Part shown: piece by piece, positions 11,120 through 22,391 of the stretch
Layout of the letters: the number at the start of each line of letters is the position of its first letter
Numbering within the stretch: the stretch's first letter is position 1
DNA from: Escherichia coli
GTDB taxonomy: Bacteria > Pseudomonadota > Gammaproteobacteria > Enterobacterales > Enterobacteriaceae
Strand: one strand, 5' to 3'
Assembly (NCBI RefSeq): GCF_044324785.1
Contig: NZ_CP172127.1
Length of the DNA: 64,000 nt
Translations under genes and position numbers: made by a program
Notes under the pieces: generated by a model
What the model was told of the DNA's origin: nothing
The model's database searches: none
The model's input: the letters and a program-made list of their open reading frames with translations, nothing else

Positions 11120-12441
11120 TGCCCAAACTTGTCACTTGGATGAACAACCAGCGGGTAGGCGAGTTAACGAAGTTAGCCAACGGCGCGCACACCTTTAAGT
11201 ATGCACCGGAGTGGTTAGCCAGCCGTTATGCCAGACCGTTGTCACTTTCGCTGCCATTGCAGAGGGGGAATATCACCTCTGATGCCGTATTTAACTTCTT
11301 CGATAACCTGTTACCCGATAGCCCGATTGTACGTGACCGGATCGTTAAACGCTATCATGCCAAATCCAGACAACCGTTTGATTTATTGTCAGAAATAGGG
11401 CGAGACAGCGTTGGTGCCGTGACGTTAATACCCGAAGACGAAACCGTAACGCATCCGATAATGGCATGGGAAAAGCTTACTGAAGCCAGACTTGAAGAAG
11501 TATTAACGGCTTATAAAGCAGATATCCCGCTAGGCATGATTAGAGAAGAAAATGACTTTCGCATCTCGGTTGCTGGCGCACAGGAGAAGACAGCACTGCT
11601 CAGAATAGGCAATGACTGGTGCATTCCGAAAGGAATAACGCCGACGACGCACATCATTAAATTACCGATTGGCCAAATCAGGCAGCCCAATGCGACGCTC
11701 GATCTCAGCCAAAGCGTTGATAATGAGTATTACTGTCTGCTGCTGGCGAAAGAACTTGGGTTGAATGTTCCGGACGCAGAAATCATTAAAGCGGGAAGGG
11801 TGCGCGCGTTAGCGGTCGAACGTTTTGACAGGCGTTGGAATGCTGAGCGAACGGTTTTACTTCGCTTGCCACAGGAGGATATGTGTCAGACATTCGGTTT
11901 ACCTTCATCGGTGAAATATGAATCAGATGGAGGCCCAGGCATCGCGCGGATCATGGCTTTTTTGATGGGGTCCAGCGAGGCGCTGAAAGATCGCTATGAT
12001 TTTATGAAGTTTCAGGTGTTCCAGTGGTTGATTGGCGCAACGGATGGCCATGCAAAAAACTTCTCCGTATTTATTCAGGCTGGCGGCAGTTATCGACTCA
12101 CGCCATTTTACGACATCATTTCAGCATTTCCGGTATTGGGTGGCGCAGGAATACACATCAGCGATCTCAAACTGGCAATGGGGCTTAACGCATCCAAAGG
12201 CAAAAAAACGGCAATCGATAAAATTTATCCGCGACATTTTCTGGCGACAGCAAAGTTGCTGAAATTTCCGGAAGTGCAGATGCATGAAATCCTGAGTGAC
12301 TTTGCCAGAATGATTCCGGCAGCACTGGATAACGTGAAGACTTCATTACCGACAGATTTTCCGGAGAACGTGGTGACGGCAGTTGAAACCAATGTGTTGA
12401 GGTTGCACCGTCGGTTAAGCCGAGAATACGGTATTAAGTAA
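11119..12441 (+). CDS. hipA: Serine/threonine kinase toxin HipA
   Basis: 440-aa protein MPKLVTWMNNQRVGEL...; ORF opens at 11062 but start is set at the ATG overlapping the hipB stop, as in K-12. Confidence 0.93.
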   Translation: MPKLVTWMNNQRVGELTKLANGAHTFKYAPEWLASRYARPLSLSLPLQRGNITSDAVFNFFDNLLPDSPIVRDRIVKRYHAKSRQPFDLLSEIGRDSVGAVTLIPEDETVTHPIMAWEKLTEARLEEVLTAYKADIPLGMIREENDFRISVAGAQEKTALLRIGNDWCIPKGITPTTHIIKLPIGQIRQPNATLDLSQSVDNEYYCLLLAKELGLNVPDAEIIKAGRVRALAVERFDRRWNAERTVLLRLPQEDMCQTFGLPSSVKYESDGGPGIARIMAFLMGSSEALKDRYDFMKFQVFQWLIGATDGHAKNFSVFIQAGGSYRLTPFYDIISAFPVLGGAGIHISDLKLAMGLNASKGKKTAIDKIYPRHFLATAKLLKFPEVQMHEILSDFARMIPAALDNVKTSLPTDFPENVVTAVETNVLRLHRRLSREYGIK

Positions 12442-12721
12442 GATATGGGGTTTGGTCGTTGTTAATGAGCACGACAATCATGACCGCCAACGACTGGATT
12501 CTTCCTTGGTTTATGTTGGTGCGCATAATGTATATTATGTTAAATGGAGTTTGAGTGATGCGGAGTGATTTTCCGGTCGTCGTTATTACTTCAGGGTTCC
12601 AGAACATAAAGCCTCTCCTCTTTCATAATTGGCCTGTGCATACCGGATATAGCCTGGCTGATATGCAGGTTTGCCGTTTGCCGCATCTTCTCAGCGTTGA
12701 AGAGTCAGGCTGGCAAACCGC

Positions 12722-12976
12722 GTGCAAATGAACCCCCCCTCTTTCCATCAACACTTCAGACAGCTTGCGGGAATGAGTCCACTCCGGTATCAGAAATGGC
12801 TACGCCTCAATGAAGCCAGGCGACTGATGCTGAATGAACATTACGATGTCACCACTGCAGCCTATGCTGTCGGTTACGAAAGCTTATCCCATTTCAGTCG
12901 GGAATATTCGCGGATGTTTGGAGAGTCACCTAAGAGAGATATTACCAGGTTAAGAAAGTCTGTCGGTCAGCTTTAA
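12722..12976 (+). pseudogene. yneL: AraC-family regulator remnant (C-terminal HTH only), yneL-like
   Basis: 84-aa ORF (GTG start) carrying only the second AraC HTH (...SHFSREYSRMFGESPKR...); a short upstream ORF in another frame (about 12546-12731) ends here, so the locus looks like a decayed full-length gene. Confidence 0.7.
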
Positions 12977-13409
12977 TAAACCCTGCACTTATCTGTTTAG
13001 AGCAATTCCGTGTTAGTTACACCAGGCAAACATTAACTATAGCTAATGATTTATAGCCATATAAACCATTAGTCGCTCTTGACCTTTCCTGACACTTCCC
13101 TTGTTCGCAATAATATTCTGTTTAGTCGCTGTTTATAAATATCATGCATAATGAAATCGTCATGTTATTTAGCGACATAAAATGTTTTTGCAAATACTCT
13201 CTACAACAAGTGCTGCAATAAACTTGTTGTGATTAGGTGTCCTTGTAATTTAAAGATATTATCGTTCTTCGTGAAATGTAATAACCCTGGAAACTATATT
13301 CTCAGGGCAACAACCAATTAAGAATGATTCTTGTTTTATAAGCAATAACAGAATGACTTAATTGTTAACTCTCTTTATTCAGCTACTTAAATATAAATTT
13401 TGGAGAATT

Positions 13410-13973
13410 ATGAAACTCAAACATGTCGGTATGATTGTCGTTTCTGTGTTGGCGATGTCGTCTGCTGCGGTAAGCGCAGCCGAGGGTGATGAATCAGTAA
13501 CGACCACTGTTAATGGCGGTGTTATTCATTTTAAAGGTGAAGTGGTAAATGCCGCTTGTGCGATTGATTCAGAATCAATGAACCAAACGGTTGAGCTGGG
13601 TCAGGTCCGTTCTTCTCGTCTGGCTAAAGCGGGTGACCTCAGCTCCGCCGTTGGCTTCAATATCAAGCTGAATGATTGTGATACCAATGTTTCCAGTAAT
13701 GCAGCTGTTGCATTCCTGGGTACTACTGTCACCAGTAATGACGACACATTAGCGCTGCAGAGTTCAGCGGCAGGCTCTGCCCAAAATGTCGGTATTCAAA
13801 TTTTGGACCGTACGGGCGAGGTATTAATACTTGATGGTGCCACTTTCAGCGCTAAAACTGACTTGATTGATGGCACGAATATACTGCCGTTCCAGGCTCG
13901 TTATATTGCTCTCGGGCAGTCAGTAGCTGGTACTGCAAACGCTGATGCGACCTTCAAAGTTCAATATCTATAA
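13410..13973 (+). CDS. F9 (Yde/Fml) fimbrial major subunit, FimA-like
   Basis: 187-aa protein with signal peptide [23 protein letters not shown] and fimbrial subunit C-terminus ...[16 protein letters not shown] upstream; first gene of the chaperone-usher operon. Confidence 0.85.
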
Positions 13974-14326
13974 TTCAATCTTAAGGTGGCTATACGTCAT
14001 CTGAAATTGAAACAGGGTGTGTGTGGCATGGCTACGCACACCCGAGAAATTCACCAATGTTCATCTCATTATTAATGAGGAATAGTTTGTGTTTTGGAGC
14101 GGTATGAAAAAATCACATAATATCTAAACGTTCAATAAACAACAGTAGTTAAACTTACTGTTATTTAGAGTATTTACTTTATAGCAAGGTTTTCCTATTA
14201 AAAGAGAACCAACATTTATTTCAAACGCATTAAGTCTGGAAACCCGGCGACTCGCCAATGTATTAGCAACATTTACCGATTGTCTGATGTAACGGTTTCC
14301 CCGCTTATCCTCTTAACACATGGAGA

Positions 14327-15046
14327 ATGCATCAGATGCAAACTACGCGTACCCCCTACTCTGTTTCCTTTATGGCGACAGTGTTACTTTTATTGGTCTT
14401 TGCTTGCCATAGCACCATTGCCAACGCAGCTGTCGCACTGGGTGCGACGCGGGTAATTTATCCGGCAAACCAGAAACAGGTTTTATTGCCTGTCACGAAT
14501 AATGATCCTGCCAGTGTCTATCTCATTCAGTCATGGATAGAAAATGCAGGTGACCAAAAAGACACCCAGTTTGTCATTACCCCACCGCTTTTTTCCATGC
14601 AAGGTAAAAAAGAGAATACGCTGCGGATAATCAACGCCACTAATCATCAGTTACCAGGCGACCGTGAAAGCCTGTTCTGGGTTAATGTTAAAGCTATTCC
14701 TGCTATGGAAAAAGACCAGAAGAATGAGAATACATTACAGCTGGCAATTATTAGCCGCATAAAAATGTTTTATCGCCCCACGAACCTGGCAATGGCACCT
14801 GAAGAAGCGCCTGCAATGCTTCGGTTTCGTCGCAGCGGCAGCAAACTCACTCTTATTAATCCAACGCCCTACTTCATTACCGTAACAAATATGAAAGCAG
14901 GAAATAGCAATCTCCCAAACACCATGGTGCCGCCAAAAGGTGAAGTATCGGTGGATATCCCGCATGCTGCAACCGGGGATATCAGTTTTCAGACGATCAA
15001 TGATTACGGTGCATTAACTCCGCGTATTAAGGCAACCATGCAGTAA
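14327..15046 (+). CDS. Periplasmic fimbrial chaperone (PapD/FimC family)
   Basis: 239-aa ORF with signal peptide and PapD-like fold features; sits between major subunit and usher; exact start (14327 or a nearby ATG) uncertain. Confidence 0.85.
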   Translation: MHQMQTTRTPYSVSFMATVLLLLVFACHSTIANAAVALGATRVIYPANQKQVLLPVTNNDPASVYLIQSWIENAGDQKDTQFVITPPLFSMQGKKENTLRIINATNHQLPGDRESLFWVNVKAIPAMEKDQKNENTLQLAIISRIKMFYRPTNLAMAPEEAPAMLRFRRSGSKLTLINPTPYFITVTNMKAGNSNLPNTMVPPKGEVSVDIPHAATGDISFQTINDYGALTPRIKATMQ

Positions 15047-15087
15047 GCCAGTGACCTAATTAATAATAAACTCAATCGGAATCAATA

Positions 15088-17739
15088 ATGACATCCTTTC
15101 GTGCCGCATTTAAGGCATATCGTATGCATCAGGTGTTACTACTGCCTCGCTTTGCACGGCTTACCATTGCCCTTGGCTTAGCAACTGCGGTTTTTCCCGT
15201 TGACGCAGAGTATTATTTTAATCCACGGTTTTTAAGCAATGATCTTGCTGAATCTGTCGATTTATCCGCCTTTACTAAGGGACGCGAGGCACCACCTGGT
15301 ACATATCGGGTCGACATTTATTTGAACGACGAATTTATGACTAGTCGGGATATTACTTTTATTGCAGATGATAATAACGCAGATCTCATCCCATGCCTGA
15401 GTACAGATCTTCTTGTCAGTCTTGGCATAAAAAAATCAGCGTTATTAGACAATAAAGAACATTCGGCAGAAAAACATGTGCCGGACAACAGCGCATGCAC
15501 ACCACTTCAGGATCGTTTGGCCGACGCATCAACTGAGTTTGATGTTGGTCAGCAACATCTGTCACTCTCCGTTCCGCAAATTTATGTTGGCAGAATGGCT
15601 CGCGGCTATGTTTCTCCTGATCTGTGGGAAGAAGGAATAAATGCTGGGCTGCTAAACTATAGTTTTAATGGTAATTCTATTAATAATCGTAGTAACCATA
15701 ATGCAGGAAAATCCAACTATGCATATTTGAATTTACAGAGTGGCATCAACATTGGTAGTTGGCGACTGCGCGATAACTCAACGTGGAGTTATAACAGTGG
15801 GAGTAGCAATTCATCTGACAGCAATAAATGGCAGCATATCAATACGTCGGCTGAACGTGACATTATTCCCTTACGCTCACGCTTAACGGTAGGTGATAGT
15901 TATACCGATGGCGATATTTTTGATAGTGTGAACTTTCGTGGCCTCAAAATAAATTCAACAGAAGCGATGTTGCCCGATAGCCAACATGGTTTCGCTCCGG
16001 TGATTCATGGTATTGCCCGCGGCACCGCACAAGTGAGTGTAAAACAGAATGGATACGATGTTTATCAGACTACTGTCCCACCCGGCCCTTTTACTATTGA
16101 TGATATCAACTCTGCGGCCAATGGTGGTGATCTGCAAGTAACCATAAAAGAGGCAGACGGCAGTATTCAGACATTATATGTTCCTTATTCGTCTGTTCCG
16201 GTTCTCCAACGTGCTGGATATACGCGTTATGCGCTTGCCATGGGGGAATATCGTAGTGGAAATAACCTGCAAAGCTCCCCCAAGTTCATACAAGGTAGCT
16301 TGATGCATGGACTGGAAGGAAACTGGACACCTTATGGCGGAATGCAAATTGCAGAAGATTATCAGGCCTTCAACCTTGGTATTGGTAAAGATTTAGGACT
16401 TTTTGGTGCCTTTTCTTTCGATATCACGCAGGCCAATACGACACTTGCAGATGGCACCCGTCACAGCGGGCAATCGATTAAATCCGTCTACAGCAAATCC
16501 TTCTACCAGACGGGAACCAATATCCAGGTCGCAGGATATCGCTATTCTACGCAAGGTTTTTATAACTTATCCGACAGTGCCTACAGTCGAATGAGTGGTT
16601 ACACCGTCAAGCCTCCTACCGGAGACAGCAACGAGCAGACACAATTTATTGATTATTTTAATCTGTTCTACAGTAAGCGTGGTCAGGAACAAATAAGCAT
16701 CTCTCAGCAGCTTGGAAATTACGGTACGACATTTTTCAGTGCCAGTCGCCAAAGTTACTGGAACACGTCACGCAGCGACCAGCAAATATCATTTGGATTA
16801 AATGTGCCGTTTGGTGATATTACGACTTCGCTGAATTACAGCTTTTCCAATAATATATGGCAAAACGATCGGGATCATTTACTTGCTTTTACGCTTAATG
16901 TTCCCTTCAGTCATTGGATGCGTACAGACAGTCAGTCGGCATTTCGTAATTCAAACGCCAGTTACAGTATGTCAAACGATTTGAAAGGCGGCATGACCAA
17001 TCTATCAGGGGTTTATGGCACTCTGCTGCCGGATAATAACCTGAATTATAGCGTTCAGGTAGGTAACACCCACGGAGGTAATACATCGTCTGCCACCAGT
17101 GGTTACAGTTCTCTTAATTATCGTGGAGCTTACGGTAATACGAATGTCGGTTACAGTCGGAGTGGGGACAGCAGCCAGATTTATTACGGAATGAGTGGTG
17201 GGATTATTGCTCATGCTGATGGCATCACCTTTGGTCAGCCGCTGGGCGACACAATGGTTCTGGTTAAGGCTCCTGGCGCTGATAATGTCAAAATAGAGAA
17301 CCAGACCGGTATTCATACCGACTGGCGTGGCTATGCCATATTACCATTTGCGACAGAATATAGAGAAAATCGTGTCGCTCTTAACGCGAATTCCCTTGCA
17401 GATAATGTTGAACTGGATGAAACAGTAGTCACTGTCATCCCAACTCACGGTGCTATTGCCAGAGCAACATTTAATGCACAAATCGGCGGGAAAGTATTAA
17501 TGACGTTGAAGTACGGTAATAAGAGCGTTCCATTCGGTGCAATTGTCACACACGGAGAGAATAAAAATGGCAGCATTGTCGCGGAAAACGGTCAGGTTTA
17601 TCTGACTGGACTTCCACAGTCAGGGAAATTACAGGTTTCATGGGGCAAAGATAAAAACTCAAACTGTATTGTCGAGTACAAGCTTCCTGAAGTTTCTCCT
17701 GGTACCTTACTGAACCAGCAGACAGCAATCTGTCGCTAA
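15088..17739 (+). CDS. ydeT: Fimbrial outer membrane usher (FimD family), full length
   Basis: 883-aa ORF typical of ushers; K-12 ydeT is an N-terminally truncated usher as I recall, here it appears intact. Confidence 0.88.
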   Translation: MTSFRAAFKAYRMHQVLLLPRFARLTIALGLATAVFPVDAEYYFNPRFLSNDLAESVDLSAFTKGREAPPGTYRVDIYLNDEFMTSRDITFIADDNNADLIPCLSTDLLVSLGIKKSALLDNKEHSAEKHVPDNSACTPLQDRLADASTEFDVGQQHLSLSVPQIYVGRMARGYVSPDLWEEGINAGLLNYSFNGNSINNRSNHNAGKSNYAYLNLQSGINIGSWRLRDNSTWSYNSGSSNSSDSNKWQHINTSAERDIIPLRSRLTVGDSYTDGDIFDSVNFRGLKINSTEAMLPDSQHGFAPVIHGIARGTAQVSVKQNGYDVYQTTVPPGPFTIDDINSAANGGDLQVTIKEADGSIQTLYVPYSSVPVLQRAGYTRYALAMGEYRSGNNLQSSPKFIQGSLMHGLEGNWTPYGGMQIAEDYQAFNLGIGKDLGLFGAFSFDITQANTTLADGTRHSGQSIKSVYSKSFYQTGTNIQVAGYRYSTQGFYNLSDSAYSRMSGYTVKPPTGDSNEQTQFIDYFNLFYSKRGQEQISISQQLGNYGTTFFSASRQSYWNTSRSDQQISFGLNVPFGDITTSLNYSFSNNIWQNDRDHLLAFTLNVPFSHWMRTDSQSAFRNSNASYSMSNDLKGGMTNLSGVYGTLLPDNNLNYSVQVGNTHGGNTSSATSGYSSLNYRGAYGNTNVGYSRSGDSSQIYYGMSGGIIAHADGITFGQPLGDTMVLVKAPGADNVKIENQTGIHTDWRGYAILPFATEYRENRVALNANSLADNVELDETVVTVIPTHGAIARATFNAQIGGKVLMTLKYGNKSVPFGAIVTHGENKNGSIVAENGQVYLTGLPQSGKLQVSWGKDKNSNCIVEYKLPEVSPGTLLNQQTAICR

Positions 17740-17752
17740 GGAACAAGAGATT

Positions 17753-18283
17753 ATGAAATACAATAACATTATTTTCCTCGGTTTATGTCTGGGGTTAACC
17801 ACCTATTCTGCTTTATCCGCAGATAGCGTTATTAAAATTAGCGGGCGCGTCCTCGATTATGGCTGCACAGTCTCATCGGATTCGCTTAATTTTACCGTAG
17901 ATCTCCAAAAAAACAGTGCCAGACAATTTCCAACGACCGGTAGCACAAGTCCAGCCGTCCCTTTTCAGATTACGTTAAGTGAATGCAGTAAAGGGACTAC
18001 GGGGGTTCGGGTTGCATTTAACGGTATTGAGGATGCAGAAAATAATACTCTGTTGAAACTGGATGAAGGAAGCAATACGGCCTCCGGTTTGGGTATAGAA
18101 ATACTGGACGGAAATATGCGTCCGGTGAAATTGAATGACCTTCATGCCGGGATGCAGTGGATCCCACTGGTACCAGAACAGAACAATATTTTGCCTTACT
18201 CCGCTCGTCTGAAGTCAACTCAGAAGTCCGTCAATCCGGGACTGGTGAGGGCTTCGGCAACCTTTACCCTTGAATTTCAATAA
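17753..18283 (+). CDS. ydeS: Fimbrial minor subunit (FimF-like)
   Basis: 176-aa secreted pilin-like protein with signal peptide and conserved Cys pair; operon position matches ydeS. Confidence 0.85.
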   Translation: MKYNNIIFLGLCLGLTTYSALSADSVIKISGRVLDYGCTVSSDSLNFTVDLQKNSARQFPTTGSTSPAVPFQITLSECSKGTTGVRVAFNGIEDAENNTLLKLDEGSNTASGLGIEILDGNMRPVKLNDLHAGMQWIPLVPEQNNILPYSARLKSTQKSVNPGLVRASATFTLEFQ

Positions 18284-18295
18284 TCAGAGTCAGAT

Positions 18296-18799
18296 ATGAA
18301 AAGACTTCACAAGAGGTTCCTGTTAGCTACGTTTTGCGCGTTATTCACAGCAACTCTCCAGGCCGCCGATGTCACTATCACTGTTAATGGTCGGGTAGTC
18401 GCTAAACCCTGCACTATTCAAACCAAAGAAGCTAACGTTAATCTCGGGGATCTTTATACGCGCAATCTGCAACAACCTGGTTCTGCATCAGGGTGGCACA
18501 ATATTACTTTGTCATTAACCGATTGTCCGGTTGAAACAAGTGCAGTGACGGCAATCGTGACAGGTTCAACTGACAATACGGGTTATTACAAAAATGAAGG
18601 TACTGCCGAAAATATTCAGATAGAGCTAAGGGATGACCAGGATGCGACGTTAAAAAATGGCGATAGCAAAACGGTTATTGTTGATGAGATCACTCGTAAT
18701 GCACAGTTTCCACTTAAGGCAAGAGCTATCACGGTGAATGGAAACGCAAGCCAGGGAACGATCGAGGCGCTAATCAATGTGATCTACACCTGGCAATAA
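18296..18799 (+). CDS. ydeR: Fimbrial minor subunit (FimG-like)
   Basis: 167-aa pilin-like protein with signal peptide; operon position matches ydeR. Confidence 0.85.
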   Translation: MKRLHKRFLLATFCALFTATLQAADVTITVNGRVVAKPCTIQTKEANVNLGDLYTRNLQQPGSASGWHNITLSLTDCPVETSAVTAIVTGSTDNTGYYKNEGTAENIQIELRDDQDATLKNGDSKTVIVDEITRNAQFPLKARAITVNGNASQGTIEALINVIYTWQ

Positions 18800-18858
18800 C
18801 GTCGATTCGATTTTCTTAGCCTCCTTTTTAAATCAATTTTTTAACCTTAGGATATATC

Positions 18859-19773
18859 ATGGGTAAAACAATAAGTATGAAGCTTCTGTTCGGTATTTAT
18901 CTTCTATTAATGGCAGGCAAAGTTTTTGCCTTCAGTTGTAATGTCGATGGCGGGTCAAGTATTGGAGCAGGTACAACCTCTGTTTATGTTAATCTCGACC
19001 CTGTAATACAACCGGGCCAGAATCTGGTTGTAGACTTGTCTCAACATATCAGTTGCTGGAATGATTACGGCGGCTGGTACGACACTGATCATATAAACCT
19101 GGTACAAGGCTCAGCTTTCGCAGGCTCTCTACAGTCATATAAAGGATCGCTGTACTGGAATAATGTGACCTACCCCTTCCCGTTGACGACAAATACTAAT
19201 GTATTAGATATTGGTGATAAGACACCGATGCCATTACCGTTAAAACTCTATATTACCCCAGTCGGGGCGGCCGGTGGAGTTGTCATAAAAGCCGGGGAAG
19301 TTATTGCCCGTATTCATATGTATAAAATTGCCACGTTAGGAAGCGGAAATCCGCGTAATTTTACGTGGAATATTATTTCAAATAACAGTGTTGTTATGCC
19401 AACAGGCGGCTGCACTGTTGATAGTCGTAATGTCACCGTGAATCTCCCGGACTTTCCTGGAAGCGCAGAAATACCCCTTGGCGTATATTGCTCAAGCGAA
19501 CAAAAGCTCTCATTTTATCTTTCGGGTGCCACCACTGACAGTGCCCGACAAGTGTTTGCTAACACAGCACCAGATGCAACAAAAGCATCGGGAGTGGGTG
19601 TCTCTCTGATGCGTAATGGAAAAATACTGGCTACGGGAGAAAACGTCTCCCTGGGGACAGTAAATAAAAGCAAAGTACCTCTGGGTTTAAGCGCAACCTA
19701 TGGACAAACAGGAAACAAGGTTGCAGCCGGAACAGTTCAGTCAGTCATTGGTGTCACTTTTATCTATGAATAA
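18859..19773 (+). CDS. ydeQ: FimH-like two-domain fimbrial tip adhesin of F9 fimbriae (FmlH/YdeQ)
   Basis: 304-aa protein, signal peptide then FSCNVDGG... lectin-domain start resembling FimH FACKTANG, plus C-terminal pilin domain. Confidence 0.85.
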
Positions 19774-19845
19774 TTGTGATTTTGACATTAGTCTATGCGT
19801 TCCATTCACGAAAATTGTGCGGATAATTATTTTGTGAAGGCTATT

Positions 19846-19863
19846 ATCCTACACTTGTAAGAA
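19846..19863. promoter_or_regulatory. EvgA box upstream of ydeP (ATCCTACA-CT-TGTAAGAA)
   Basis: Near-perfect match to the EvgA inverted repeat TTCYTACA-N2-TGTARGAA; ydeP is a known EvgA target. Confidence 0.7.
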
Positions 19864-20111
19864 AATCCGCGCACAATTGAAGCCAGAGTCTTATTTTTTA
19901 TATTGAAAAACATGTTAATTTAAACACTATGAGAGATGATGCTTAACTTATCGTATTTATACCATTCTATTATTTAACGATAATAGATTAAAAATAGAAA
20001 GAGAGTAGTCCCCTACTCTTATATATCCAGGTTGATGATAAACCTATTATATATACTGTGCATCATCGCTATTACAAATCCTAATAATTCATTTCCACAC
20101 AGGATAAGCAG

Positions 20112-22391
20112 ATGAAGAAAAAAATTGAATCCTACCAGGGAGCTGCCGGTGGTTGGGGTGCTGTTAAATCCGTAGCAAATGCAGTACGTAAGCAGATGGA
20201 TATACGCCAGGATGTTATTGCCATGTTTGACATGAATAAGCCAGAGGGCTTTGACTGTCCGGGATGTGCATGGCCAGATCCTAAGCACAGTGCGTCATTC
20301 GACATTTGTGAAAACGGCGCAAAAGCAATCGCCTGGGAAGTCACGGATAAGCAGGTAAATGCCTCTTTCTTTGCTGAGAATACGGTTCAATCATTACTTA
20401 CCTGGGGAGATCACGAGCTTGAGGCTGCGGGGCGTCTCACTCAGCCTTTGAAATATGATGCCGTCAGCGACTGTTACAAGCCATTAAGCTGGCAACAAGC
20501 TTTCGACGAAATAGGCGCACGCCTTCAAAGCTATAGTGATCCCAATCAGGTTGAATTCTATACTTCGGGCCGCACTTCCAATGAAGCAGCCTTTCTTTAT
20601 CAGCTTTTTGCCCGTGAATACGGGAGCAATAACTTTCCCGACTGTTCCAACATGTGCCATGAACCGACCAGCGTGGGATTGGCAGCGAGTATCGGTGTAG
20701 GTAAAGGGACCGTGTTGCTGGAAGACTTTGAGAAATGCGATTTAGTCATTTGCATTGGGCATAACCCTGGTACAAACCACCCTCGCATGTTGACTTCGTT
20801 GCGCGCTTTAGTGAAACGGGGAGCGAAAATGATCGCCATCAATCCTCTACAGGAACGTGGCCTGGAGCGATTTACCGCACCGCAAAACCCGTTTGAAATG
20901 CTGACGAACTCTGAGACTCAGTTGGCCAGTGCCTACTACAACGTGCGCATTGGTGGTGATATGGCGTTGCTCAAGGGGATGATGCGCCTGTTAATTGAGC
21001 GCGATGATGCTGCAAGCGCCGCAGGTCGGCCCTCATTGCTTGATGACGAATTTATTCAAACGCATACCGTCGGCTTTGACGAGCTACGCCGTGACGTTCT
21101 CAATTCCGAGTGGAAAGATATCGAACGTATTTCTGGACTAAGTCAGACACAAATCGCCGAACTGGCTGATGCATATGCCGCTGCCGAACGCACCATTATC
21201 TGTTACGGAATGGGGATCACTCAGCACGAACATGGTACCCAGAATGTACAGCAACTGGTCAATCTGCTGTTGATGAAAGGTAACATTGGCAAGCCTGGTG
21301 CGGGTATCTGCCCACTACGAGGTCACTCTAATGTACAGGGCGACCGAACCGTCGGTATCACCGAGAAACCGTCTGCAGAGTTTCTGGCTCGCCTGGGTGA
21401 GCGCTATGGTTTCACCCCACCTCATGCACCTGGACATGCTGCAATTGCCAGCATGCAAGCAATATGTACGGGGCAGGCTCGAGCATTGATCTGCATGGGG
21501 GGCAACTTTGCACTGGCAATGCCAGATCGGGAAGCGAGCGCTGTACCGTTAACGCAATTAGATTTGGCGGTACACGTAGCCACTAAGCTTAACCGCTCTC
21601 ATCTGCTGACCGCACAGCATAGCTATATTCTGCCGGTTCTTGGGCGTAGCGAGATTGACATGCAAAAAAGCGGTGCGCAGGCGGTAACCGTTGAGGATTC
21701 AATGTCGATGATTCATGCCTCGCGTGGCGTGTTAAAACCCGCCGGTGTAATGCTGAAATCAGAGTGTGCAGTGGTCGCGGGAATCGCGCAGGCAGCACTA
21801 CCCCAGAGCGTGGTAGCCTGGGAGTATCTGGTGGAAGATTATGATCGCATTCGCAATGACATTGAAGCTGTGCTGCCAGAGTTCGCCGACTATAACCAGC
21901 GCATCCGACATCCTGGAGGTTTTCACCTGATAAACGCAGCTGCTGAAAGGCGCTGGAGGACGTCGTCAGGTAAGGCTAATTTCATTACCAGTAAAGGGCT
22001 GTTAGAAGATCCCTCTTCAGCGTTTAACAGTAAGCTAGTCATGGCGACAGTACGCAGTCACGATCAGTACAACACGACGATTTATGGTATGGATGATCGC
22101 TATCGAGGGGTATTCGGTCAACGAGATGTGGTCTTTATGAGTGCTAAACAAGCTAAAATTTGCCGTGTAAAAAACGGCGAAAGAGTTAATCTTATTGCGC
22201 TTACGCCAGACGGTAAGCGAAGCTCACGCCGCATGGATAGATTAAAAGTGGTCATTTACCCTATGGCTGACCGCTCACTGGTGACCTATTTTCCAGAATC
22301 GAATCACATGCTAACACTTGATAACCACGATCCATTAAGTGGCATTCCTGGCTATAAAAGTATTCCGGTTGAATTAGAACCATCAAATTAA
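20112..22391 (+). CDS. ydeP: Acid-resistance molybdopterin oxidoreductase YdeP (formate dehydrogenase-like)
   Basis: 759-aa ORF with N-terminal Cys cluster (CPGCAWPDP...) and molybdopterin oxidoreductase architecture; matches YdeP. Confidence 0.92.

Follow-up and report, generated by a model that had tools for sequence, protein, structure and literature searches.

Does the chromosome of this Escherichia coli strain carry a complete F9 (Yde/Fml) pilus operon at the place where K-12 has only a truncated remnant, and, if so, how would that operon be controlled? In the window (the whole stretch of 64,000 nucleotides analysed here, from contig NZ_CP172127.1 of assembly GCF_044324785.1), the list of open reading frames contains six non-overlapping frames on the + strand, to which the yneL remnant, promoter, leader and hairpins described below are also assigned. 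They are free of internal stops and span positions 13410-19773, from the first ATG of the operon to its last stop codon. In order, they encode a major subunit, a chaperone, an usher, the FimF-like YdeS, the FimG-like YdeR and the adhesin YdeQ/FmlH, and they lie between hipBA (10835-12441) and ydeP (20112-22391), a layout that matches the published one (PMC3966885). Reading frames, family profiles, structure alignments and the match to the uropathogenic strain CFT073 all bear out the six-gene F9 identity put forward in the original prediction. Judging from sequence comparison, we consider it highly probable (about 93%) that this is the F9 chaperone-usher pilus operon of the E. coli chromosome, kept in the ancestral state without interruption. 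The operon is real but ordinary, being well studied and complete as in most strains: its gene order, hipBA and ydeP flanks, disruption in phylogroup A and K-12, repression by H-NS and promoter were already known (Wurpel et al. 2014). Because not only its structure, distribution, K-12 disruption and H-NS control but also its receptor and inhibitors have been published, it carries little weight as a discovery. The analysis nevertheless establishes this genome as a carrier of a fully intact F9 locus.

The major pilin, a homologue of FmlA/C1936 (13410-13973, 187 aa), scores 174 bits against the NCBIfam FimA-type model (cutoff 140) and can be aligned along its whole mature part with FimA structures. 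Its ATG at 13410 is preceded by GGAG 8 nt upstream; the mechanically delimited frame begins earlier, at TTG 13362. The PapD-like periplasmic chaperone (14336-15046, 236 aa; NCBIfam FimC-type, 258 bits) aligns to mature residues 2-204 of FimC and keeps the motifs GATRVIYP and NVKAIP. Initiation at another ATG, 14327, would lengthen it to 239 aa; in other strains the gene is annotated by RefSeq with 711 bp. In the FimC alignment the chaperone has the conserved subunit-anchoring Arg8 and Lys112 (FimC numbering). The outer-membrane usher (15088-17739, 883 aa) is full-length, covering positions 6-877 of the 877 in profile PRK15193 (985 bits), and its residues 42-883 align to FimD 2-833 (1146 bits), including the N-terminal domain, the barrel and plug, and the C-terminal domains; its C-terminal 382 aa differ at 4 residues from K-12 YdeT. 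The two adaptors, the FimF-like YdeS (17753-18283, 176 aa; NCBIfam FimF 239 bits, cutoff 200) and the FimG-like YdeR (18296-18799, 167 aa; NCBIfam FimG 257 bits, cutoff 220), align to FimF and FimG structures, respectively, and each differs from its K-12 counterpart by a single amino acid. Alignment to FimA, FimF, FimG and FimH structures, together with a two-domain adhesin, places these subunits among chaperone-usher pilins of the gamma-1 (Fim-like) clade. N-terminal extensions of 22-40 residues, seen in alignments to PDB entries, precede the mature start and are consistent with the signal peptides that had been predicted.

Scores above the cutoffs of the FimA, FimF and FimG equivalog models, and a gene order resembling fimACDFGH, might suggest that the region is the type 1 (fim) operon itself or has recently been duplicated from it, a reading also implied by the automatic RefSeq names fimA, fimF and fimG. 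We regard this as vanishingly improbable, given that the proteins are only 43-64% identical to the K-12 Fim proteins (64% for the pilin against K-12 FimA), that its position, between hipBA and ydeP, is not that of fim, and that the adhesin is FmlH, fully identical in the lectin domain and endowed with a galactoside rather than a mannose pocket. Two components of the fim system were also searched for. A fimS-like invertible switch was rejected, as no recombinase frame occurs between hipA and the pilin gene and an inverted-repeat search returned no pair bracketing the promoter as the 9-bp repeats do in fimS. The 353-bp spacer between pilin and chaperone was likewise rejected as a decayed fimI: NCBIfam matched none of its three forward frames (E <= 10), and tblastn gave no meaningful match to K-12 FimI.

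The tip adhesin, YdeQ/FmlH (also known as FmlD or C1931; 18859-19773, 304 aa), is a two-domain protein that aligns over its full length to FimH 1-279. A PDB search found residues 25-184 identical at 160 of 160 positions to the lectin-domain structures 6AOW and 5LNE, and the crystallised FmlH chain begins precisely at residue 25 (VFA/FSC). The galactoside pocket, composed of F1, Y46, D53, K132, N140 and R142 (PMC5866590), is complete, and the whole adhesin differs by 7 aa from K-12 YdeQ. Given this identity with the crystallised lectin domain, the FmlH of this strain should bind terminal beta-galactosides, namely Gal(b1-3)GalNAc (TF antigen), Gal(b1-3)GlcNAc and galactosylated xyloglucan. The receptor of FmlH and inhibitors of the adhesin have already been published, and the lectin domain encoded by this genome is identical to the structure used as a drug target.

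The original prediction also held that all six frames are intact, and this is supported by protein lengths equal to those of the CFT073 counterparts and by end-to-end alignment to solved Fim homologues, which together rule out hidden frameshifts in the usher or the adhesin. The CFT073 operon, c1931-c1936 (Ulett 2007; Wurpel 2014, PMC3966885), has a demonstrated function, and the same six genes were the source of plasmid pF9, the F9 over-expressing western-blot control (PMC3966885). Substitutions relative to CFT073 number 3, 3, 19, 2, 2 and 6 in gene order, 35 in total over the six proteins, which are thus about 98-99% identical. Against the much more distant strain E500002, amino acid identity is 92-99% despite 28% divergence at four-fold sites, which argues for purifying selection on the F9 proteins.

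How, then, does K-12 differ? Alignment of the window to K-12 ydeT-ydeQ and to the F9 operon of CFT073, the check proposed at the outset, both verified the equal frame lengths and mapped the K-12 deletion. By blastn against MG1655, the segment missing from K-12 is 13232-16512 (3281 bp), which takes in the leader from +74 onwards, the first two genes and the first 475 residues of the usher, but not the promoter. The junction shows 1 nt of microhomology, and its left end abuts an inverted repeat of the leader (13203-13230, described below). In agreement with the absence of the major subunit, the chaperone and the 5' end of the usher stated in the original prediction, the MG1655 annotation lists at this locus only ydeT (382 aa), ydeS, ydeR, ydeQ and the yneL pseudogene. 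Having neither pilin nor chaperone, and an usher without its N-terminal half, K-12-type strains would be unable to assemble the F9 pilus. Of 5426 complete genomes, 1379 (~25%) have precisely the K-12 junction, and these sequences indicate that K-12 and about a quarter of sequenced strains have one ancestral 3281-bp deletion in common, so that the K-12 state can be traced to a single event sparing the promoter. The 3281-bp segment was found in 3819 of the same genomes, with at least 80% coverage in 3514, a count based on segment coverage. The intact state is that of the majority (3514-3563 of 5426, ~65%), about one third of E. coli genomes having lost the operon wholly or in part. None of the complete RefSeq E. 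coli genomes is more than about 98.4-99.1% identical to the window in any segment compared, which places the lineage of this strain outside that collection. The rarity implied by the initial contrast with K-12 was thus overstated; it is K-12 that is the unrepresentative reference at this locus.

Upstream of the operon, blastn homology to CFT073 begins at 12997, and the regulatory DNA shared with that strain (12997-13122) includes the sites at -111 and -103 for which H-NS motifs have been published (PMC3966885). The f9 promoter, of the sigma-70 type, follows at 13123-13159, with a -35 box TAGTCG (13123-13128), an 18-bp spacer, a -10 box CATAAT (13147-13152) and a start G at 13159, 251 nt before the ATG at 13410. 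A regular-expression search matched the published hexamers and their spacing exactly, and the start site itself was mapped by 5'-RACE in CFT073 (PMC3966885). Within the spacer, position 13142 is T in the window but A in all five strains with which it was compared. The promoter stretch is 92% conserved relative to a strain with 28% neutral divergence. The AT-rich 5' leader (13159-13409, 251 nt, 70.5% AT) carries the H-NS motifs published at +8, +14, +57 and +89 (PMC3966885); it is 85-86% conserved relative to E500002, against 72% at four-fold sites, and its RNA fold has a z-score of -2.3. It contains a perfect 9-bp inverted repeat, ACAACAAGT-N10-ACTTGTTGT, at 13203-13230 (+45 to +72). In E500002 the left arm of this potential hairpin is unchanged, the right arm carries an A-to-G change that would form a U-G wobble, and the loop varies.

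The interval 12977-13409 had originally been described as a long AT-rich leader. Its AT richness stands (68.5% over 12997-13409 versus 51.7% for the whole window), but its extent has to be revised, the transcribed leader being 13159-13409 and the promoter 13123-13152. The accompanying suggestion of silencing by H-NS draws on experiments in CFT073, where H-NS was reported to bind, an hns mutant to be de-repressed and F9 to be expressed at 20 °C (PMC3966885). The mapped promoter and the AT-rich leader recur here with base-for-base conservation, so that silencing in the present strain appears plausible by analogy, through support that is indirect.

A further part of the original prediction, that a local regulator had been lost or had decayed, finds no support. 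The candidate is the yneL remnant (12722-12976, 84 aa), a C-terminal AraC-type HTH fragment that weakly matches NCBIfam regulators of the RhaS/AraC type at their C-terminal ends and has in-frame stops upstream. AraC-type regulators control some fimbrial operons, and yneL adjoins f9 on the same strand, so that it might be the vestige of a dedicated f9 activator whose decay explains the silence of the operon. However, the remnant lies outside the conserved f9 unit: with both CFT073 and LF82, homology sets in at 12997, immediately after yneL has ended. In these two B2 strains yneL is absent and the genes upstream of f9 are an SDR oxidoreductase and a LysR pseudogene; F9 expression in CFT073 is nonetheless regulated. 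In strain 2012C-4221, a 4.2-kb oxidoreductase cluster sits directly upstream of the yneL remnant, between it and hipA. yneL is a pseudogene in K-12, is annotated without its N-terminus in other strains and, in every sampled E. coli genome, is an N-terminally truncated or short HTH-domain protein, whether f9 is intact or deleted. Wurpel et al. likewise gave no evidence for a link between yneL and f9. We thus judge a former activator role of yneL very improbable.

A working model can be proposed for the F9 operon, drawn from the Fim and Pap paradigm and from experiments on F9 in CFT073 and O157. By occupying the AT-rich promoter and leader, H-NS would allow almost no expression in laboratory culture at 37 °C. 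When expressed, the subunits would be exported through Sec, captured by the PapD-like chaperone and polymerised at the usher by donor-strand exchange, FmlH forming the tip, followed by YdeR, YdeS and then many copies of the major pilin. The conditions under which F9 is reported to be expressed are temperatures of about 20-28 °C and the inflamed bladder. In a 2025 transcriptome and proteome study of CFT073, F9 expression was low and did not respond to temperature over 23-37 °C (PMC12890032), so that the temperature switch does not appear robust.

Very low expression under standard conditions in CFT073 and O157, an AT-rich leader and the loss of all or part of the operon in about a third of genomes, which marks it as dispensable, would also be expected if the operon were structurally intact yet cryptic, permanently silenced by H-NS and decaying as are several chaperone-usher operons of K-12. 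We consider this rather unlikely for the present strain: none of the six frames is broken, the proteins bear the mark of purifying selection noted above, the promoter core and leader are conserved beyond the neutral rate, and fmlH/f9 mutants have published phenotypes in mouse urinary tract infection and calf colonisation.

A side lead comes from the pilin-chaperone spacer, where a conserved hairpin follows the major-subunit gene at the position that the small RNA FimR2 occupies in fim. The element (13986-14045, 60 nt) is a 3'-UTR sequence made of a single-stranded stretch and a hairpin (14015-14043), which has 13 bp, is G+C-rich (-23.8 kcal/mol), begins 42 nt after the stop codon and has no U-tract, and therefore does not qualify as a canonical terminator. 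The hairpin is identical in the window, CFT073, LF82, 2012C-4221, O157 and 21F61. Relative to E500002, 58 of 61 positions of the element are conserved (binomial P = 5e-6 at 27.9% neutral divergence), and the remainder of the spacer is 75.6% identical. This conservation indicates that the hairpin is under purifying selection, and is its sole support, covariation being absent because the only substitution, in E500002, breaks a G-U pair and no compensatory changes occur. Rfam gave no match in the hairpin region and, over 12400-20200, returned only a chance-level OxyS match (E = 0.2), which falls within ydeQ on the reverse strand. At the other end of the operon, no convincing terminator was found after ydeQ (fold z = -0.8; sites from a consensus scan no more numerous than in shuffled sequence).

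By analogy, the hairpin most likely protects or attenuates the transcript, an effect that would leave the major pilin in excess over the assembly proteins. More speculatively, 13986-14045 could, beyond stabilising the mRNA, be released as a trans-acting small RNA similar to FimR2, a 35-nt sRNA derived from the fimA 3' UTR (Raad 2022, PMC9723502). The two elements share their place after the major-subunit stop, a single-stranded 5' part, then a G+C-rich hairpin whose last bases are CACCC, and an ACGTCAT heptamer at offsets of 20 and 17 nt after the stop. They differ in that K-12 fimR2 starts 11 nt after the fimA stop, and in that the F9 hairpin, placed 42 nt downstream of the pilin stop, is longer and has an AUG loop. 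The GGA motif in the loop that FimR2 needs to bind CsrA (PMC9723502) is absent from 13974-14045, loop and single-stranded part included. We hold release of such an sRNA to be improbable; were it true, the K-12-type deletion would have cost ~25-30% of E. coli strains not just a pilus but also a regulator.

Compared with known systems, the F9 operon of this strain shares with type 1 fimbriae a gamma-type architecture and assembly logic, each protein aligning end to end with its Fim counterpart, and both operons have a hairpin after the major-subunit gene. It departs from fimAICDFGH in lacking fimI, the fimB/fimE recombinases and the invertible switch. The K-12 remnant occupies the same place, between hipBA/yneL and ydeP, as the complete operon does here. 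The closest known counterpart is the F9 operon of CFT073, with which it shares all six genes, their order and the protein lengths, together with an identical -35 box, -10 box, start site, 251-nt leader length and FmlH lectin domain, the two loci being colinear and 97.3% identical in nucleotide sequence over 8004 bp, from 12997 to beyond ydeP.

The region at 13410–19773 is correctly identified as the F9 operon, which is real yet already known in nearly every respect. An ORF listing of the window shows six consecutive plus-strand frames without internal stops, coding for a FimA-type pilin (13410–13973, 187 aa), a PapD-like chaperone (14336–15046, or from 14327 with the upstream ATG), an usher (15088–17739, 883 aa), a FimF-like subunit (17753–18283), a FimG-like subunit (18296–18799), and a two-domain adhesin (18859–19773, 304 aa). 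The first five proteins match NCBIfam models end to end (the usher over profile positions 6–877 of 877), and in searches of solved structures all six align along the entire mature FimA, FimC, FimD, FimF, FimG or FimH. In these alignments, every protein has 22–40 residues before the mature start, N-terminal extensions consistent with those expected for signal peptides. The original prediction of an intact six-gene operon is thus confirmed exactly. The fimA, fimF and fimG labels that RefSeq gives this locus are automatic name transfers from paralogues.

The F9 cluster of the uropathogenic strain CFT073 (c1931–c1936) has been studied experimentally (PMC3966885). The six window proteins have exactly the CFT073 lengths and differ from them by 3, 3, 19, 2, 2 and 6 residues, in gene order, with no substitution in the lectin domain. 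At the same locus, the K-12 strain MG1655 is annotated with only ydeT (382 aa, the usher remnant), ydeS, ydeR, ydeQ and the yneL pseudogene. By blastn, K-12 lacks window positions 13232–16512 (3281 bp), a deletion with one base of microhomology at its junction that takes the leader from +74 on, the pilin, the chaperone and usher residues 1–475; the f9 promoter and 73 nt of leader are retained, joined to mid-usher sequence. Because the CFT073 lengths are equal and the K-12 deletion is mapped, hidden frameshifts and an intact operon in K-12 are both ruled out.

Among 5426 complete E. coli genomes, the whole locus reaches at least 80% coverage in 3563, and the segment missing from K-12 is found in 3819 (3514 at coverage of at least 80%), although coverage is not equivalent to intact frames, and somewhat fewer operons will really be intact than these counts suggest. 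The exact K-12 junction, present in 1379 of the 5426, points to what would be a single inherited deletion. The intact operon is the majority and ancestral state and K-12 the exception; Wurpel et al. (2014) agree on this distribution and describe the order of the six genes, flanked by hipBA and ydeP (PMC3966885). A few genomes carry divergent, fully intact alleles (19 records at 80–90% identity in the pilin–chaperone region). One of them, in E. coli E500002 (NZ_CM128599.1, 6511–12873), shares about 90–93% nucleotide and 92–99% amino-acid identity with the window and has an unrelated upstream flank (an ankyrin-repeat protein and an IS481 fragment), making it a useful outgroup in selection tests.

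In the mapping by Wurpel et al., f9 transcription starts at a G 251 nt before the start codon, preceded by the −10 CATAAT and the −35 TAGTCG with an 18-bp spacer (PMC3966885). The window has exactly this arrangement on the plus strand, with the −35 at 13123–13128, the −10 at 13147–13152 and the start G at 13159, 251 nt before the ATG at 13410. H-NS binds the promoter region, f9 is de-repressed in an hns mutant, and it is expressed at 20 °C (PMC3966885). The suggestion of H-NS silencing through an AT-rich leader therefore matches published experiments, and the leader is indeed 70.5% AT against 51.7% across the window, but it begins at 13159 rather than 12977. The temperature response depends on conditions, since in a 2025 study of CFT073 F9 expression was low and did not differ between 23 and 37 °C (PMC12890032). 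The leader also contains a perfect 9-bp inverted repeat, ACAACAAGT-N10-ACTTGTTGT, at 13203–13230 (+45 to +72). In the divergent strain the loop differs, while the stem still pairs, with a U-G wobble where A is replaced by G. K-12 keeps this hairpin, and the 3281-bp deletion has its left end directly 3' of it.

Upstream, an 84-aa ORF (12722–12976) with same-frame stops before it corresponds to the C-terminal helix-turn-helix of an AraC-type protein, yneL, which had prompted the suggestion of a lost or decayed local regulator of f9. This reading is not supported, because homology to the B2 strains CFT073 and LF82 starts at 12997, directly after the yneL stop, those strains having an SDR oxidoreductase and a LysR pseudogene there instead; because yneL is equally truncated in the intact-f9 and deleted-f9 strains compared; and because, according to Wurpel et al., nothing links the variable upstream regulators to f9 (PMC3966885). 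In 2012C-4221, an extra 4184-bp cluster encoding an NAD(P)H oxidoreductase, an aldo/keto reductase, a quinol monooxygenase and a carboxymuconolactone decarboxylase is inserted in the hipA–yneL interval (window positions 12534–12539), where it directly precedes the yneL remnant, truncated in this strain too. As an indel hotspot, the 5' flank of f9 varies between phylogroups. Upstream of hipBA, an uninterrupted 1822-aa ORF (5174–10642) occupies the position of the K-12 yneO pseudogene and of partial "ECSE_1600 family autotransporter" pseudogenes in 2012C-4221 and E57; this autotransporter looks intact in the window. For the tested segments 1–12440, 12440–20120 and 39000–63900, no complete RefSeq E. 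coli genome exceeds about 98.4–99.1% identity, and the top matches come from a different strain for each segment. The window's lineage apparently has no member in that collection and may be a Shigella or an unusual E. coli lineage. The last segment (25 kb, spanning dosC/dosP, maeA, ddp genes and a GntP-family permease) has a colinear match at coverage of at least 80% in only 228 of 5426 genomes; compared with most E. coli it thus carries a variable insertion or rearrangement.

Directly 3' of the major-subunit gene lies a conserved element (13986–14045) made of a single-stranded stretch and a 13-bp G+C-rich hairpin (14015–14043, 42 nt past the pilin stop, −23.8 kcal/mol) that is identical in six strains and followed by no U-tract. 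Taking as neutral yardstick the 27.9% difference at four-fold degenerate sites between the window and the divergent E500002 operon, the 61 aligned positions over the element are 95% conserved (binomial P = 5e-6). Since the rest of the pilin–chaperone spacer (75.6% identity to E500002) drifts at about the neutral rate, this conservation shows that the element is under selection. In K-12-type strains it is lost. Hairpins at the 3' end that raise pilin stoichiometry are known from other pilus operons (pap, fim), and by analogy the most economical reading would be a stabilising or attenuating hairpin of this kind. A putative trans-acting sRNA is possible. In the K-12 annotation, the sRNA FimR2 lies at the equivalent position directly 3' of fimA, and an ACGTCAT heptamer and a terminal CACCC are common to both; however, the F9 element has no GGA motifs, whereas FimR2 needs its loop GGA for CsrA binding (PMC9723502). 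An Rfam search gave no match for the F9 hairpin element.

Adhesin residues 25–184 are identical (160/160) to the crystallised lectin domain of FmlH (6AOW, 5LNE), and the pocket residues F1, Y46, D53, K132, N140 and R142 are all present. In FmlH, these residues recognise terminal Gal or GalNAc, with the TF antigen among the ligands (PMC5866590); Gal-beta-1-3-GlcNAc is also a ligand (PMC3966885), as is galactosylated xyloglucan in published F9 work. From the identical lectin domain, we infer that the window strain would have the same receptor specificity. Compared with fim, which has recombinase genes and an invertible element, neither was found at the F9 locus; fimI is absent, the 353-bp pilin–chaperone spacer having no protein-level signal. 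Since each F9 protein can be aligned in full to its counterpart in type 1 pili (43–64% identity), the Fim mechanism may be applied to F9, and assembly of a binding pilus in the window strain would be expected. Subunits would be exported by Sec, captured by the chaperone and joined by donor-strand exchange at the usher, with FmlH (YdeQ) incorporated first, followed by the FimG-like YdeR, the FimF-like YdeS and the major pilin.
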